This document shows, piece after piece, positions 14,385 to 63,700 of a stretch of 64,000 nt of DNA. Every line of letters starts with the position of its first letter. The first letter of the stretch is position 1. A model generated the notes under the pieces. The model searched no databases, had not been told where the DNA came from, and saw only the letters and a program-made list of their open reading frames with translations. This stretch comes from a virus (lineage: Duplodnaviria > Caudoviricetes), in IMG/VR virus record IMGVR_UViG_3300032257_000006, positions 1-64,000 of that record; one strand, 5' to 3'. A program made the position numbers and the translations under genes.

Positions 14385-14405
14385 GATCTAAGTACTCCTA
14401 AAATA

Positions 14406-14421
14406 TTCGGACAAGTCCGAA
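14406..14421. repeat. Palindrome copy 2
   Basis: TTCGGACAAGTCCGAA. Confidence 0.9.
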
Positions 14422-14423
14422 AG

Positions 14424-15149
14424 TTATTTACGAATAACAATCATCATAGTAGCAATGTTTGTTCCACTGGACTTAAACATACCTGCTGGCAGCTCTTCAA
14501 TTTCGGCCTCTACTTCTAACAACCAAGCGCGAAATGCTACCTGCTTTTTCTGATTACCTTGTGACCAAGACTTGCTAGCTAATGACACCATTATACCTCC
14601 GTCAGCTAGGTGCTGGTACATCTTGCGGATATGGTCTACGTCCTGATTTTTGGTGAACGGAGGGTTCGCAATAATCCTATCGAACTCGCGATTAAGCATA
14701 CACTCGCCGTTCATAAAATCATCTTCAAATACTTGGCCGATGTCCATCTTACGCAATGCCTTAACTCGTTCAGGTTCTAGCTCAACCATTGTGATCAATG
14801 CATCAGTACCTGCATACTCTTTGACCAGTGCAGCTTCACCTGCTGACGGCTCTAACAATCTGCACAGTGGTTGCATATTAAGTTTACGTTGCATACGTTC
14901 TACTACAGATTCAGGTGTCGCAAAGAACTGGTACTTCTTTTTGTCATCTATCTTTTCGCCACCTACCAGACGTGCAAGTACTTCTCCGGCGTCACCTTTA
15001 AACGTGAAGCCGCACTTAGAATATTTACCACCTGCTTTTGTCAGAGTTCGTTTAACTTCTGCATAGTTTTCAATTGCAGTGTCTGGAAGGTTTAAGCGAT
15101 TGCCGTCAACAATCATAAGTTTTAGTGATTCAATTAATTTTTCATTCAT
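14424..15149 (-). CDS. Class I SAM-dependent amino (N6A/N4C-type) methyltransferase
   Basis: LLEPSAGEAAL (SAM binding) and IIANPPF (catalytic); start moved to ATG 15149 to avoid overlap with the upstream gene. Confidence 0.8.
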   Translation of the reverse strand: MNEKLIESLKLMIVDGNRLNLPDTAIENYAEVKRTLTKAGGKYSKCGFTFKGDAGEVLARLVGGEKIDDKKKYQFFATPESVVERMQRKLNMQPLCRLLEPSAGEAALVKEYAGTDALITMVELEPERVKALRKMDIGQVFEDDFMNGECMLNREFDRIIANPPFTKNQDVDHIRKMYQHLADGGIMVSLASKSWSQGNQKKQVAFRAWLLEVEAEIEELPAGMFKSSGTNIATMMIVIRK

Positions 15150-16442: not shown

Positions 16443-16813
16443 GTTTCATTTCCTATTTGTTCTAAGTTTACTAGTACACCAAATCGATAGAACGTTAAGT
16501 CGTAAAACTCTACTCGATCACCTGCCAGCAGCGAGTCGGTTTGAAATACCATCTCACAATCTGTATCAGAAAGATCCTGAGAAAATTTATAACCATCTTT
16601 AGTTACAATTGAATAGCTAAAAATTACCCCAGTCATAGTTGCGAAACCAGACGCTTTATAGCGGTTAAATCCTAAACTGAAGATACTTAATTTAGCTAGC
16701 GTCTCGTTTTTTCGGTTTCTTAGATAGAGATGGGCATCTGATTTTTGCTTCTTAGGTTTACGTGAGAACAACTTATTACAAAATCTCTTTGCCGAGGCTG
16801 TCAGGTTTTTCAT
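16439..16813 (-). CDS. Hypothetical protein
   Basis: 124-aa ORF. Confidence 0.65.
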   Translation of the reverse strand: MKNLTASAKRFCNKLFSRKPKKQKSDAHLYLRNRKNETLAKLSIFSLGFNRYKASGFATMTGVIFSYSIVTKDGYKFSQDLSDTDCEMVFQTDSLLAGDRVEFYDLTFYRFGVLVNLEQIGNET

Positions 16814-17532
16814 ATCAGCAAACCTGAGTCTAATTTATTGAACTCGTTTATCTTCCAGTTGGTGCCGTGGACAGTGATGGCGATATCTTTCTTAGTGCCA
16901 TCGCATAACTTGCACATCTTGCAGGTCATATCAGCGTTCTTTTCAGCTGCACAGATTGTTTCTTTAACAACTGTCTCTTCACCTGTTTTCTTTATTCTGA
17001 AAGTTTTCCAGCCTTTAGCGTTAGCCGCTAATTTGTCTTGTAAATTATCAACCGATGCCATGCAATAATTTTGCAGTTCTTGGTCGCAATATTTCCAAGC
17101 GTGGGTATAGCCAGTATTGTTACGAGCGCCTTCAGATAACTGTTGCCACACCGTTAGAGGTACAGCTGCCGGATCTCCATAACTACCGAAACGCACAACC
17201 TGGTCTTTGCATAATTCGTTAAGGTTCTCAGCTACCTTCATGTCTCGGCGATTGTAAGCATGCCACACCGCTGTTGGTGCTTGGTGTACTAAGACATAAC
17301 AGGTCTTACCTCTAAGCTCACAGGTGCCGCAGATAGATTCATCAGCGCCTGTCTTTAATGCTTCGTTTGGTGCCATATCCTTACGTAGAATATACGTCTG
17401 AATAATCGGCCCAGTCTTTCTATTAGCACTAGGGCGCTTGAATCCAGTAGCCAGCACAATGATCGGTGACCCGTCTAACAATGACGGCCCGTCGTATACA
17501 AGGTACATACTATCTTTAACTTTTTTAGTCAT
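16810..17532 (-). CDS. Cys-rich putative metal/Fe-S protein
   Basis: CGTCELRGKTCYV, RFGSYGDPAA, GYTHAW, CKMCKLC; start moved to ATG 17532 after the AGGAG RBS. Confidence 0.6.
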   Translation of the reverse strand: MTKKVKDSMYLVYDGPSLLDGSPIIVLATGFKRPSANRKTGPIIQTYILRKDMAPNEALKTGADESICGTCELRGKTCYVLVHQAPTAVWHAYNRRDMKVAENLNELCKDQVVRFGSYGDPAAVPLTVWQQLSEGARNNTGYTHAWKYCDQELQNYCMASVDNLQDKLAANAKGWKTFRIKKTGEETVVKETICAAEKNADMTCKMCKLCDGTKKDIAITVHGTNWKINEFNKLDSGLLI

Positions 17533-17550
17533 GAAAATTCTCCTGAAATG

Positions 17551-17566
17551 TTCGGACATGTCCGAA
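17551..17566. repeat. Palindrome copy 3
   Basis: TTCGGACATGTCCGAA. Confidence 0.9.
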
Positions 17567-17568
17567 AG

Positions 17569-17829
17569 TTACTTTGCAACTAATTTGTACTGATTGTGTC
17601 TTGTGTTGTAGGTGTAAATCAGTTTCGATTTGTCACTAAAGACACAGGTATATTTTACGCATTTTCCGCGGTCTGTATACAGGCTCTTAATTTCCTTAGG
17701 CGTCTCATTTACGGTGTCTGAAAAGTCTAACCGTTTACCCCACTTTGTGGTTCCGTAGCCGTCTTTCATAGACAGTTGAACACAATCTGCGGCTAGTATT
17801 GCTTTTCGTAACTCTGCTGCTTTAGTCAT
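17569..17829 (-). CDS. Hypothetical protein
   Basis: 86 aa, GGAG RBS. Confidence 0.7.
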   Translation of the reverse strand: MTKAAELRKAILAADCVQLSMKDGYGTTKWGKRLDFSDTVNETPKEIKSLYTDRGKCVKYTCVFSDKSKLIYTYNTRHNQYKLVAK

Positions 17830-19446: not shown

Positions 19447-19748
19447 ACTCGTATAGGCTCTTCGAACACATACTCAATAGCAGACTGACGGAAACCATAA
19501 ACAACCTCTTCATGATGTACTGACTTGAAGTACTCTACGTAACCATCTTCACGCATTGCCATATGCTCATCGTAACCAAGGTTACGTTCAATCTCTTCCA
19601 ACTGGTCACGATTTACATTAGATAAAAAGCGTGCCCGAGTTATCTCAGTTCGTTTATCTATGAGATCGACAAGGCCGCCCTCTACATGTACATCGTCTGG
19701 GTTCCAATTAACACAGTCGCTGTAAAAATCTAATCGTTTATTTGGCAT
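19443..19748 (-). CDS. Hypothetical protein
   Basis: 101 aa, AGGAG RBS after palindrome copy 4. Confidence 0.7.
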   Translation of the reverse strand: MPNKRLDFYSDCVNWNPDDVHVEGGLVDLIDKRTEITRARFLSNVNRDQLEEIERNLGYDEHMAMREDGYVEYFKSVHHEEVVYGFRQSAIEYVFEEPIRV

Positions 19749-19766: not shown

Positions 19767-19782
19767 TTCGGACATGTCCGAA
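19767..19782. repeat. Palindrome copy 4
   Basis: TTCGGACATGTCCGAA. Confidence 0.9.
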
Positions 19783-19792
19783 AGTTAATTAG

Positions 19793-19910
19793 AGCTGAGA
19801 GCTGGACTCGAACCAACGACCTCCACCTTAATAGGGTGGCGCTCTTCCCGTAGTGAGATACAGTCTTAGCAACAGTCTCACCTATTACCTCGCCTCTGAG
19901 CTATCCCAGC
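19793..19910 (-). tRNA. Atypical tRNA-like RNA: anticodon ATT, ~45-nt insertion in the D-loop, no encoded CCA
   Basis: Acceptor GCTGGGA/TCTCAGC; TA; D-stem GCTC/GAGC with a 53-nt loop; anticodon arm CCACC-CTATTAA-GGTGG; variable AGGTC; T-arm GTTGG-TTCGAGT-CCAGC. Confidence 0.75.
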
Positions 19911-19927
19911 TCTAATTAACCTTATAT

Positions 19928-20035
19928 TACTACTCTTATACAAGAACACTCTTTGAGATTATACCCCTCCCAAGGGGAACCTGCCTCGTTTTACAGAGTG
20001 GGAATACAGGTGAGTGCTCTTATATAAAAATAGTA
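19928..20035 (-). ncRNA. Structured RNA closed by a 24-bp stem
   Basis: 20035-20012 pairs with 19951-19928 without gaps, including 4 G-U pairs valid only on the minus strand; inner stems ACCTG/CAGGT and CCCCT/AGGGG. Confidence 0.6.
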
Positions 20036-20038
20036 GAA

Positions 20039-20073
20039 GTGGGAAGGATCATCACCACAATAGATCCTCCCAC
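20039..20073. other. 11-bp hairpin
   Basis: GTGGGA(A)GGATC / GATCCTCCCAC. Confidence 0.55.
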
Positions 20074-20157
20074 CAAGCTATGACTGGTGTGATTTGGGCA
20101 CCGCCCATTACGTAACTACATTGTCCTATCCTCCAGTTAAGGTTTAGTATTTAAAAA

Positions 20158-22515: not shown

Positions 22516-22535
22516 TTTAAAATTCTCCTGAAATA

Positions 22536-22551
22536 TTCGGACATGTCCGAG
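22536..22551. repeat. Palindrome copy 6
   Basis: TTCGGACATGTCCGAG. Confidence 0.9.
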
Positions 22552-22552
22552 A

Positions 22553-22585
22553 ATAAAAGGGCAGTACCTCAAGGGCTAGGTACTA
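22553..22585 (-). terminator. Terminator-like hairpin downstream of the ACCA-ended RNA
   Basis: TAGTACCT/AGGTACTG stem, 8-nt loop, then CCCTTTTATT. Confidence 0.55.
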
Positions 22586-22592
22586 CCAAACA

Positions 22593-22741
22593 TGGTGGCG
22601 GTTGCTGGGCTCGGCCTTTGTTATCCAGCGTTAGGTTGCTTGAGCGTTTTCGATTGGTTGTACATAAGACTCTGTAAAGTCTCATACACATAATCTACTT
22701 GCTCGTTGCACCATCAAGAGCAGCTTACAGGCTGCACCACC
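22593..22741 (-). ncRNA. ~149-nt tRNA/tmRNA-like RNA with kissing loops and a 3' ACCA
   Basis: 5' GGTGGT pairs with ACCGCC followed by ACCA; hairpin loops CTGTAA (22730-22725) and TTACAG (22677-22672) are exact complements; no coding ORF with its own start. Confidence 0.65.
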
Positions 22742-22747
22742 ATAAAC

Positions 22748-23349: not shown

Positions 23350-23365
23350 TTCGGACATGTCCGAA
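23350..23365. repeat. Palindrome copy 7
   Basis: TTCGGACATGTCCGAA. Confidence 0.9.
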
Positions 23366-23367
23366 TG

Positions 23368-23571
23368 TTATTGGCCGATAATATCGAAACTAGTACTGGC
23401 CATTTTAATTTGCACATCAAATCCCAGATCTTTAATTTTACGCAGCTGGTCACGACTTAATGTTTTTGTTCCTGCTAACTGACAAAAACTTTTAGCATTG
23501 TCATCTACAGGGTAGGCAAGTTCTTTGCCGTATTGTTGCTTTACTTCAATTGTAACAGTTGGTTTAATCAT
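23368..23571 (-). CDS. Hypothetical protein
   Basis: 67-aa ORF. Confidence 0.7.
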   Translation of the reverse strand: MIKPTVTIEVKQQYGKELAYPVDDNAKSFCQLAGTKTLSRDQLRKIKDLGFDVQIKMASTSFDIIGQ

Positions 23572-60779: not shown

Positions 60780-63700
60780 TGCCTGCTCAGTTTATAAGTG
60801 GTGAACAAGTAACAGGTAGTGCGTATGTTGTACCAGCAGGCACAGACCGCCAGATGTTATACATGGTTACCGGCGAGAACAGTGGTTTTGCCAGTGTACT
60901 AACCAATGTAACTTATGGTGGTCAGGCGATGACCCCTATAATTTCTGATGTCATTGATGGTAATCAACTTTGGGTTCACGTCTTCATGTTAAATGAAGCC
61001 GGTATAGTCGCAGCGACTGACACTAGCTTTATTGAGACTTGGAGTTCAGGTACCGTAACGGACACAACATTTGCTTGTACCCTTTCTGGCGTACACCAAG
61101 GTGCTCCGATAAATGCACAGTCACTAACCACCCACCTATCAAACGACCCTGTAAAACCAACCGTATCAGTCGGTGATAATGGATTACTGTTTGAGTTAGT
61201 CGGCTCTGGCGGAACCGTAACCAACTGGACGTGGACTAATTTTATAGAAAGAGTTCGCGATGCTAACTCTGGAAAAGACTTTGCGATAGCTACTCAAGAA
61301 GTTGTTACTAGTGGTCTAATACAGACAGAATTTGATGACGGTATTATTGCTAGGTCATACCTAGCGGCAATTGCATTTAATGAGGCGAATCTAAATCCAT
61401 ACGTAACAAATTTTGTTGGAGCAGGGTCAGGTGCAGATAGTATATATCTAGGCGAACTAGGTTTACTATCAGGTGCGAACTTTGAAGGGACTCGAAATTC
61501 TGGCGTTGTAATACTTAGCCCTACAACCGACATCAATGATGTAAACGCCTACACCGTAACGACATACTCAGGTTGGACAGATGGCAGTATATTCTTCATG
61601 CCATCAGCAGACGCTAATTTAAAAATAGGAACACTGTATGCGTTTGTAAGAAATAACAGTGGGTTAGAAAGTGCTGCTTTACCTATTACGTTGCTGCCAA
61701 AACAGCTTAAAGCATCTAATACTATACAAAGCATTAGTCCACTTGGTATATATAAAGATATAACTGGTATAGAGCTTGGTGCTGATATTGTAGAGTACGA
61801 TACAGTATCTTCAGGCGGTGGAACTGTTACCGTATTGTTGTCTGGTATTGCAGAGATAGCTTATAGCAGCACTGTACCTGACTCAGATACATTCGGTTTC
61901 AGAATATTTGACGACTCACTATATGAATATACTGCAATCAGTACTGCAACTGTACAGAACGCTGACAAGACAGGCTCAGGTACTATTGCGGCTCAAGATG
62001 CTATATCTTCAGGTTCCGGCGAAAGATCAGTTACAGGCTCAGGTACTATTGCGGCTCAAGATGCTATCTCTTCGGGTTCCGGCGAAAGATCCGTTACAGG
62101 TTCAGGCGCAGTTACAGCAGAAGACAGCACAGTTATTGGCCAAGCAGGTCTCGGCCCACACATAGCCGCATCAAACGGCAGTCCGCCTGCTGTATTTTTT
62201 GAAGAAGAGTTCATATTCTGGACGCTGATATACACTACATACAGCATAAACGATGGAACTCCTAGTATTGATTTTATAGGTAGTGATCTACCTGCCGGAT
62301 TAAATAATACCCAAGTCTCTAACAATATAGCAGCATGGCAAGGTACACCATCTCAAGGAAGTTCAGGGGATTATACTTATAAATCAACAATGACCACTGA
62401 ATACGGTGTAGTCAGTAATGAGTTCACCGTACAGGTAAGAAAACGCGTTACAGGCACAGGCGTTGTTGCAGCAGACGAGTCTACAGTTTATGGGTCTGGT
62501 ACGCTTACCGTAACTGGACCAGGTACAGCCGAAGCTCAAGAATCTAATGTAGCAGGCGCAGGTTTTATTGCACACACTGGTTCAGGTTCAGCAGATTCTC
62601 AGCCATCAATCGTAGATGGCGCATCTGTAAGTGAATATACCTATACTGCTGACAATACAAATTACACTGCAATAGTTGCAGGTGCTACTTCTAGTGAAGT
62701 AGTTGGTTTAGAAGCTGGTATATATACTGGTGGTTTAGCTGTACCTAGTGGCGTAACTGTTAAGGCAATAGATGGTTTAGGTAGCGTTTATTTCACGCAA
62801 GGCTCAGTCGGAATATCAGGCAGTAACGGCATAATACTTTTAGAAAATACTGGATCAACTGTAGATGGAATTATAGCGCATACACCAACAGACGATAATT
62901 CACACGGTATTATGATTACTGGTGATGGCAATTCACTTTTAAATTGTATTGGATACAACGGTGGAAATGCTGTACATAAAATACCATGCTTTGTTAGTGG
63001 TAATAATAATTTAGTTGAAGATTCAGGATTCTTCGGTGTAGGTCGTTACTCATTCCAAATATTTACAGCAACAGGGAATACAATTAGACGCGTTATAGCT
63101 AGATGGGATTCTACAGTTATAAATAATCTAACCCAACCAAATGCTACGTTTTCTAATTACAATGCAAATAGCACTACGTGGGAAAATTGTGTTGCAATAG
63201 ACTACAACGCTACACCGGATGAAATGAATTATGGTGGTTGCTTCTACTCACCACACAACCAAGGCGTTTGGCCTATTGGTAACAGGGACAATGGTTGGTA
63301 TGGTTGTATAGTTGCGCACCACGATAGAACTAATGACGCACTACCATTGGGTGAGAACAACCAAGGGTTTAGATCTGATACAACCAACCCAACAAATTTA
63401 TGTGTGGATAATGTTGTTAGAGATTTTTATGTACGTGATACTTTGCGTGACATTCAAATATATCCATATACACAATATGAATTTACAGATGTTACAAGAG
63501 TAGATGTCGATAACATAACCGCCGATGGTACATTTGGTGATGGTGGCCGCTCTAGTATGACGGCTGGGTCTGGTGCAGATATTGACGTCCAATATATAGA
63601 TGGCGTAAAAACTGCTACACCACTATGGCCGTTCAAAAATGAAGACATAATAAAAGCAGAAATGCTAAACATTGCTGACGGCAATCGTGGATGGGCTGCA

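Follow-up and report, generated by a model that had tools for sequence, protein, structure and literature searches.

A tRNA-like element with a structured D-loop expansion and a lengthened acceptor helix in the early arms of two uncultured tailed phages

Introduction

Is a phage locus that folds as a complete tRNA cloverleaf, with a much enlarged D-loop and a lengthened acceptor helix, a decoding tRNA, the precursor of one, a relic or an RNA of another kind? We addressed this question for an element encoded by an uncultured tailed phage in IMG/VR (IMGVR_UViG_3300032257_000006; record of 78,952 bp, estimated to be 95% complete), using the first 64,000 nt of the record, hereafter the window, together with searches of the whole record and of other genomes. 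Work on defences that cleave tRNAs, PrrC, PARIS, retron effectors, Schlafens and OLD among them, is expanding fast, and phages are so far known to counter them in only two ways, by supplying replacement tRNAs or by encoding enzymes that repair RNA. A conserved RNA shaped like a tRNA, whose anticodon is off-target, whose end is sealed and which carries an additional module under selection, would be either another answer to such defences or a tRNA of a new kind tolerated by the translation machinery. If it decodes, it would be a natural tRNA with a large structured D-loop expansion, none of which is described in a review of non-canonical tRNAs (PMC7609411); if it does not, it would join the short list of bacterial tRNA mimics as a phage member with normal tRNA topology.

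A tRNA fold that scanners pass over

The element lies on the minus strand, as do all early genes of window positions 1-30 kb. An earlier note on this DNA had described four canonical arms around a 53-nt D-loop, an AUU anticodon, a U discriminator and the absence of CCA, and each of these features is present when the minus strand is read (Table 1). The acceptor stem comprises seven base pairs, one of them G-U, and is followed by U8 and A9; G26 stands between the D-arm and the 5-bp anticodon stem, the anticodon loop is CUAUUAA, and C48 can make a Levitt pair with G15. Ten perfect leader-trailer pairs, which contribute about -14 kcal/mol to the predicted fold, lengthen the acceptor to a 17-bp helix, as also noted earlier; position 73 falls within this helix, is U in the window phage and is not followed by an encoded CCA. 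The palindrome that had been placed immediately after the helix begins one base past it; after the palindrome come a Shine-Dalgarno site and, at 19748, the start codon (ATG) of the following gene. For the window copy, the predicted fold energy is -55.5 kcal/mol on the minus strand versus -43.7 kcal/mol on the other strand, with a folding z-score of -4.4 on the minus strand. The fold is specific to the minus strand because of its G-U pairs.

Table 1. Coordinates of the element, its parts and adjoining features (window positions unless marked as record positions)
Feature	Position	Strand	Description
tRNA-like element	19920-19784	minus	complete cloverleaf, 5' to 3' from 19920
Extension, 5' strand (10 nt, RNA positions 1-10)	19911..19920	minus	perfect pairing with 19784-19793
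Acceptor, 5' strand (tRNA positions 1-7)	19904..19910	minus	pairs with 19794-19800
D-arm	19841..19901	minus	4-bp stem, 19901-19898 with 19844-19841; 53-nt loop
Insert hairpin 1, 8 bp (three G-U)	19868..19889	minus	hexaloop L1 = 19881-19876; in the minimum-energy fold
Spacer AAGA separating the insert hairpins	19864..19867	minus	AAGA kept; GGAAGA in the sister phage
Insert hairpin 2, 5 bp	19848..19863	minus	hexaloop L2 = 19858-19853, exact complement of L1
Anticodon arm (5-bp stem, 7-nt loop)	19823..19839	minus	anticodon AUU = 19832-19830
Variable loop, 5 nt	19818..19822	minus	includes G46 and C48; same in both phages
T-arm with canonical T-loop	19801..19817	minus	5-bp stem; T54, T55, C56 and A58 kept
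Acceptor, 3' strand	19794..19800	minus	partner of 19904..19910
Extension, 3' strand	19784..19793	minus	U73 paired with -1; CUA at the CCA position
16-bp palindrome, early-gene junction module	19767..19782	.	context, outside the RNA fold
Canonical tRNA pair of the sister phage	record 63162-63319 (L020 1366-1520)	minus	counterpart of window 19921-20157

Default ARAGORN calls zero tRNA genes in the window and no canonical tRNA anywhere in the entire 78,952-bp record, and Rfam at its gathering thresholds has no match anywhere in the window. A relaxed Rfam tRNA search gives a local match in the window of 27.7 bits over model positions 8-63 (cut-off 29 bits), and the copy of the element in a sister phage, described below, likewise gives a local match, of 31.1 bits over model positions 10-63, where the true tRNAs of that phage reach 71-74 bits; the element has no full-length match to the tRNA family. 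The suspicion that standard scanners may miss the element was thus well founded. The earlier note had also proposed running ARAGORN with and without the insertion: the program misses the element with it, whereas all 69 in-silico deletions that removed about 42-47 nt and left a D-loop of 6-12 nt are called tRNA-Asn(att). The element is a case of how such genes are silently missed by standard tRNA scanners and Rfam.

Two alternative folds offered by these programs were rejected. The tRNA-Leu(gag) with a 40-nt 'intron' that ARAGORN proposes in its intron mode requires a D-stem of only 3 bp, rich in G-U, and an anticodon stem of A-U pairs, and it swallows the conserved anticodon arm, and the alternative D-arm of the Rfam local alignment in the window cannot be formed by the sister phage.

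With canonical class I tRNAs (RF00005) the element shares U8, A14, G15:C48, G18-G19, A21, U33, A37, the T-loop and a 5-nt variable loop, and the cloverleaf with U8, A14, G18-G19, A21, U33, T54-C56 and A58 is found in both phages. It differs from them in having A34 in a split box, a paired and variable position 73, no CCA, the 10-bp extension and a D-loop of 53 nt in the window phage and 51 nt in the sister phage, against a normal size of about 7-11 nt. The D-loop begins with A14, G15, one purine and G18-G19, and its last base is A21; since G18-G19 and A21 stand at the loop ends, the 45-47 extra nucleotides are placed at position 20, following G18-G19, which dock on the T-loop.

Covariation between two phages

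The sister phage, IMGVR_UViG_3300032212_000003 (75,632 bp, with direct terminal repeats), encodes a primase-like protein 82% identical to that of the window phage. The early arms of the two phages are syntenic and mosaic, and the sister element occupies the syntenic place (record positions 62953-62819, minus strand). The two copies of the element are 82% identical, compared with 48-55% for the neighbouring proteins that were compared and an upstream spacer that is unalignable. The conservation and covariation described here are measured between these two sequences.

Across all 37 helix pairs, 25 are identical, ten carry two-sided changes, two change to or from wobble and none is broken, despite 22 helix substitutions between the copies. 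Within the extension and the four cloverleaf stems, all 31 pairs are standard in both phages, with seven two-sided and two one-sided wobble changes. When the partners were slid by 1-3 columns as a control, 33-48% of positions paired and two-sided changes fell to zero, and the observed pairing values were reached by 2 of 500 shuffles. The two-sided changes are at -9:81, -1:73, 1:72, 3:70, 7:66, 27:43 and 29:41. Eight of the extension pairs are identical, while from window to sister phage -1:73 goes from A-U to U-A and -9:81 from U-A to G-U. The acceptor pair 5:68 is G-U in the window phage and G-C in the sister, a T-stem U-G of the window phage is C-G in the sister, and the D-stem is identical in both. 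Changes affect 3 of the 27 positions of the unpaired core and none of the seven of the anticodon loop, whose stem has changed two-sidedly at 27:43 and 29:41. Position 73, which is A in the sister phage, covaries with -1, a pattern to be expected of a helix that matters but not of an identity base. CCA is encoded by the element in neither phage.

The preservation of every helix therefore supports the view that the element is a working RNA of undescribed design. A dead tRNA gene, disrupted by an insertion and functionless, might be suspected from the rejection by standard scanners, the abnormal anticodon and the want of working tRNA genes in the window phage. Pairing without a single break through the substitutions counted above, and an element better conserved than the neighbouring proteins and upstream spacer, are the reverse of what this predicts; with pairing and loop kept between the phages, a decaying pseudogene is scarcely credible. 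The earlier note had named random decay in homologs as the outcome that would overturn its reading, and the one homolog presents the opposite: the insertion is kept, the helices covary and the anticodon loop is identical. A remnant of an attP or integration site was also rejected, as no integrase was seen among the window-phage genes and the covariation is at the RNA level, with strand-specific G-U pairs.

About 210 nt upstream of its element, the sister phage carries a tRNA-Arg(UCU) and a CAU tRNA (Met or Ile2), which score 71 and 74 bits, have an encoded CCA in each case and lack any leader-trailer helix. An unrelated structured spacer (19921-20157) takes the place of this tRNA pair in the window phage, whose commonest Ile and Arg codons are ATA and AGA.

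Two hairpins at the elbow

In the minimum-energy fold, the insert of the window phage forms two hairpins of 8 bp and 5 bp with an AAGA-containing spacer between them, and the sister insert can fold likewise, into two 5-bp hairpins. Hairpin 1 of the sister has two one-sided changes that keep the pairing, and four of the five stem pairs of hairpin 2 carry two-sided changes in the sister phage. The complementarity of the two hexaloops, L1 and L2, is retained through three two-sided changes and is private to each phage: the L1:L2 duplex is predicted at -6.6 and -6.3 kcal/mol within a phage and at -1.5 and -0.7 kcal/mol across phages. With the cloverleaf kept, the two-hairpin state has a predicted energy of -52.4 kcal/mol in the window phage and -48.3 kcal/mol in the sister; the corresponding values for the state with a loop-loop helix are -43.1 and -46.5 kcal/mol.

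The earlier note had drawn a single 6-bp hairpin in the D-loop. Its two strands do pair and covary, but in the more stable fold both of them are hexaloops. The 6-bp hairpin and the two-hairpin fold are mutually exclusive pairings with covariation for both, and we therefore take both to be under selection. A full 6-bp loop-loop helix within one molecule would be difficult to form across a spacer of 4-6 nt, which makes a two-state switch or intermolecular pairing the likelier arrangement.

The same folds bear on whether the element is a tRNA precursor from which a short D-loop intron is removed, the halves being rejoined to give an ordinary tRNA(AUU) of 76-78 nt. Removal of 42-47 nt does restore a tRNA that ARAGORN accepts, and D-loop introns occur in archaeal tRNAs (PMC3241643). 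Unclassified insertions have also been reported in phage tRNA genes (PMC6784885), where the unexplained inserts of Lak megaphages were placed in the anticodon loop by the prediction settings. However, both covariation-supported folds were inspected and neither contains a bulge-helix-bulge, being plain helices in which no 4-bp helix has 3-nt bulges on its flanks, and an insert of 47 nt falls far short of a group I or group II intron, whose ribozyme core takes at least 200 nt and usually lies in the anticodon loop. No Rfam intron matches the element, RtcB ligase is encoded by neither phage, and the context is bacterial, with Shine-Dalgarno sites and CCA-encoding tRNAs. Selection on internal helices and on loop complementarity would, moreover, be unexpected for a passive intron, and we consider splicing very unlikely. 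Of the original proposal of a mimic or an intron-containing precursor, the functional RNA has thus gained support from the conserved homolog, and the D-loop intron has become the weak part.

Place in the early gene arm

The structural genes of the window phage include a lambda-type large terminase, an S49 prohead protease and a capsid protein. It also encodes the 937-aa primase-like protein, an SNF2 helicase, a C5 methylase, RadC, a family A DNA polymerase, a DnaQ-type exonuclease, an ATP-dependent DNA ligase, SbcCD-like proteins, a dCTP deaminase and a thymidylate synthase. The ligase is the one ATP-dependent ligase-family gene present, and its match is to the DNA-ligase domain. The proteins neighbouring the element have no Pfam match and no synthetase gene is nearby. 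RNase III, RtcB, a CCA-adding enzyme and Ro/TROVE were found in neither phage by searches that each matched control genomes, and neither phage yielded a candidate partner protein for the element.

Neither a sigma-70-like promoter nor an intrinsic terminator adjoins the element in either phage, and it is therefore probably cut out of an early polycistronic RNA. A TATAAG hexamer lies directly 5' of the extension (window 19921-19926) and recurs at the same place in the sister phage (L020 1155-1160, minus), although the remainder of the upstream spacer cannot be aligned. The hexamer was not called by the consensus promoter scan; it may represent a -10-like box or a cleavage site rich in A and U. 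The palindrome and ribosome-binding site that follow the element form a module found at no fewer than five other sites, including 17544-17574, 14401-14430, 22529-22550, 23350-23370 and 75171-75196 of the whole record, and the module is repeated in the early arm of the sister phage (17 matches). There the palindrome also follows the element, with one central base different. The recurrence of the module across both early arms indicates that this phage group conserves it as a site of regulation or processing.

This setting would suit a cis-acting element of the early transcript, one that recruits host tRNA-processing nucleases to cleave the polycistronic message at the junction, or protects the mRNA ends on either side, and whose excised RNA has no role: the element fills a gene slot of the operon with a standard palindrome-RBS junction directly after it, its own promoter or terminator was not found, and there are other structured non-coding stretches in the early arm. 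Cutting, however, requires the acceptor and T-arm only, which leaves the conserved anticodon loop, the covarying anticodon stem and the two-hairpin module unexplained, and a purely cis-acting role accordingly seems improbable.

A second strongly structured RNA of the early operon is predicted at window 22553-22745 (minus; z-score -5.0). The hexaloop motifs of the element are not visible in it by eye in the sequence. Complementary loop pairs may be a recurring design of the non-coding RNAs of the window phage. No conserved site complementary to the anticodon loop was found elsewhere in the genomes, and no repeat of the extension motif was found flanking other RNAs. Also on the minus strand of the early arm, window 16810-17559 encodes a Cys-rich DUF7227 protein, matched at 70% in the sister phage, with more than 900 homologs in many bacterial phyla and in phages.

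Decoding or mimicry

A genuine decoding tRNA is a serious possibility, though in our view a somewhat less likely one than mimicry. Its stalk would be cut by a host endonuclease acting on double-stranded or single-stranded RNA, with RNase P, trimming of the 3' end and CCA addition by the host enzyme completing the ends, and it would read AAU with the D-loop module retained and A34 unmodified, perhaps replacing a host tRNA-Asn or tRNA-Lys destroyed by a defence nuclease, or mistranslating. T4 has tRNA genes without CCA that are matured by the host. Nothing is missing from the canonical core or the anticodon loop, both of which are conserved, and the sister element belongs to a small cluster of tRNA genes. 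Of the phage tRNAs closest to the element, many carry the annotation Asn or Lys and others Val, Gly, Met or Ser, and the closest E. coli tRNA to the element body is tRNA-Val; no single isotype thus emerges for the body, and a Thr-like one is not supported. Half of the Asn codons are AAT. AUU anticodons are able to decode Asn codons in E. coli (PMC10404621), and some phage tRNAs evade anticodon nucleases (PMC11464382, PMC11555353).

Several features sit poorly with decoding. The discriminator differs, the G73 of Asn occurring in neither phage and the A73 of Lys not in both, and the Asn identity base G34 is replaced. CCA is absent though the neighbouring tRNAs of the sister phage encode it. AAT and AAC are equally used for Asn in the window phage, so that there is no codon-supply reason for a decoder of AAU only and, on codon usage alone, A34 gains nothing over G34. 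The module of 45-47 nt lies at the elbow, which RNase P and the ribosome contact, and an engineered D-loop insertion, an aptamer in E. coli tRNA-Tyr, was expressed unstably, whereas a V-loop insert was active in translation (PMC5397188).

The best reading in our view, and one we put forward tentatively, is that the element is a non-aminoacylated tRNA mimic presenting a Lys/Asn-type anticodon arm. Its anticodon loop is one base from the Lys(UUU) loop and one base from the Asn(GUU) loop. We infer that the element is co-transcribed within the leftward early operon and that its sealed end is retained. The RNA would take the normal L-shaped tRNA core, to which the two-hairpin module after G19 and the 10-bp leader-trailer helix would be additions under selection; the sealed acceptor end and the bulky elbow would keep it from aminoacylation and translation. 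A host factor that reads the anticodon arm would be presented with this loop; a defence nuclease directed at anticodons is the most plausible candidate, and for it the mimic would be a poor or uncleavable competitor.

We favour a mimic because A34, the covarying N73, the missing CCA and the elbow module are unproblematic for it, whereas a decoder would have to tolerate them all; A34 in a split codon box is an abnormal design for a decoder. The neighbouring tRNAs of the sister phage, which encode CCA and have no extension, whereas the element has an extension and no CCA, count in the same direction. Mimicry would also explain why the anticodon loop is frozen amid drifting surroundings. Against it, the nucleotides of a working tRNA core and anticodon loop (U33, A37, G18-G19 and the T-loop) are all there, and a decoder would need the same ones. 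We also know of no described RNA that acts as a decoy for an anticodon nuclease. Both defence by tRNA cleavage and tRNA-based countermeasures of phages are established (PMC11464382, PMC11555353), and the literature offered us a single natural family with an AUU anticodon, whose tRNA mistranslates (PMC10404621).

A bolder form of the mimic reading would make the element a new class of anti-defence RNA, in which unchargeable, sealed mimics join hand in hand through their hexaloops into dimers or multimers and offer A34 as an uncleavable bait, blocking or soaking up a host nuclease specific for Lys/Asn-type arms. This more elaborate scheme is something of a long shot.

Relation to known RNAs

In bacterial rRNA precursors, a leader-trailer helix continues the terminal stem of a stable RNA and is a substrate of RNase III. 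The element is similar in that its 5' and 3' flanks pair and continue the acceptor stem, and its helix with the stacked T-stem amounts to 22 bp, the size class of RNase III substrates. It is unlike these processing stalks in that neither phage encodes RNase III and the canonical tRNAs of the sister phage have no stalk. That the outer helix acts as a processing signal, as suggested earlier, is plausible, and the extension may be a mere processing stalk.

The pRNA of phi29 has two complementary loops that covary between related phages, and its 5' and 3' ends form a long helix. The element has the same combination of complementary loops that covary and differ in sequence between phages with a long end helix; unlike pRNA, it has no Rfam match, and the phages here are large and have lambda-type terminases. 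T4 species 1 and 2 (rnaC, rnaD) are small stable RNAs encoded with the phage tRNA genes, matured by host nucleases and of unknown function. Compared by description, the element resembles them as a small RNA gene in a tRNA cluster (in the sister phage); we know of no full anticodon arm or D-loop module in species 1 or 2.

YrlA, a Y RNA, mimics the D-arm, T-arm and acceptor of tRNA and has a long terminal helix, and some YrlA RNAs are phage-encoded (PMC4201824). It is, however, permuted, with its ends at the position of the anticodon arm and the acceptor as a closed stem-loop, and it adjoins the Ro60 gene (PMC4201824), whereas the element ends at the acceptor stem, has normal tRNA topology and carries a full anticodon arm. 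The Rfam YrlA model gave no match to the element at E-values up to 10, and a 40-bit YrlA match in the sister phage spans the two canonical tRNAs and not the element. Neither phage has a TROVE (Ro60) gene in a search that matched the control genomes. Identity with YrlA was rejected, YrlA being permuted and beside Ro60 and the element neither.

Streptomyces tRNAProN is a natural tRNA with an AUU anticodon on a body without Asn identity elements (PMC10404621), and the element similarly presents A34-U35-U36 on a body lacking them. The wider tRNAProX family (AUU/AGU/AGC) has A33, C1:G72, A15:A48 and G21 and an adjacent ProRSx (PMC10404621). Membership of the element in this family was rejected, as it has U33, G1:C72 or A1:U72, G15:C48 and A21 and its neighbours are without a Pfam match.

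Search for further members

Other copies were sought with a degenerate pattern that spans the anticodon, variable and T-loops. In IMG/VR it found the sister phage only, in JGI metagenomes a duplicate record of the sister and one unrelated 5'-truncated tRNA-like fragment only, and in one genome per species from 185,579 species nothing. GenBank phages hold ordinary tRNAs with partial similarity to the element and no other match. A covariance model of the element (R1) gives its two members 157-159 bits, compared with 25-53 bits for ordinary tRNAs, and on 44 further loci it recovered ordinary tRNAs only and no additional member. Searches of IMG/VR with the neighbouring proteins returned remote relatives or none, and three such loci (L008, L009 and L010) are without the element. 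One protein (P0006) is 65% identical to a neighbour of the element, and its source is probably a third relative.

The fragment from the JGI metagenomes, on contig Ga0209642_10015124 (L022 308-364), is 5'-truncated and mismatched and has the same ATT anticodon loop. Its anticodon arm and variable loop are near-identical to those of the element, its D-loop is of normal size, and the contig shares no proteins with the window phage; either distant kinship followed by decay or coincidence could account for the fragment. The best match in GenBank phages is gene 161 of Mycobacterium phage Myrna (L001 1490-1561), annotated 'tRNA-OTHER / Sup TTA', which is 93% identical over 45 nt comprising the anticodon arm and T-arm. 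With an anticodon loop of 6 nt, it is another phage tRNA of the Lys/Asn-arm type whose anticodon loop is abnormal.
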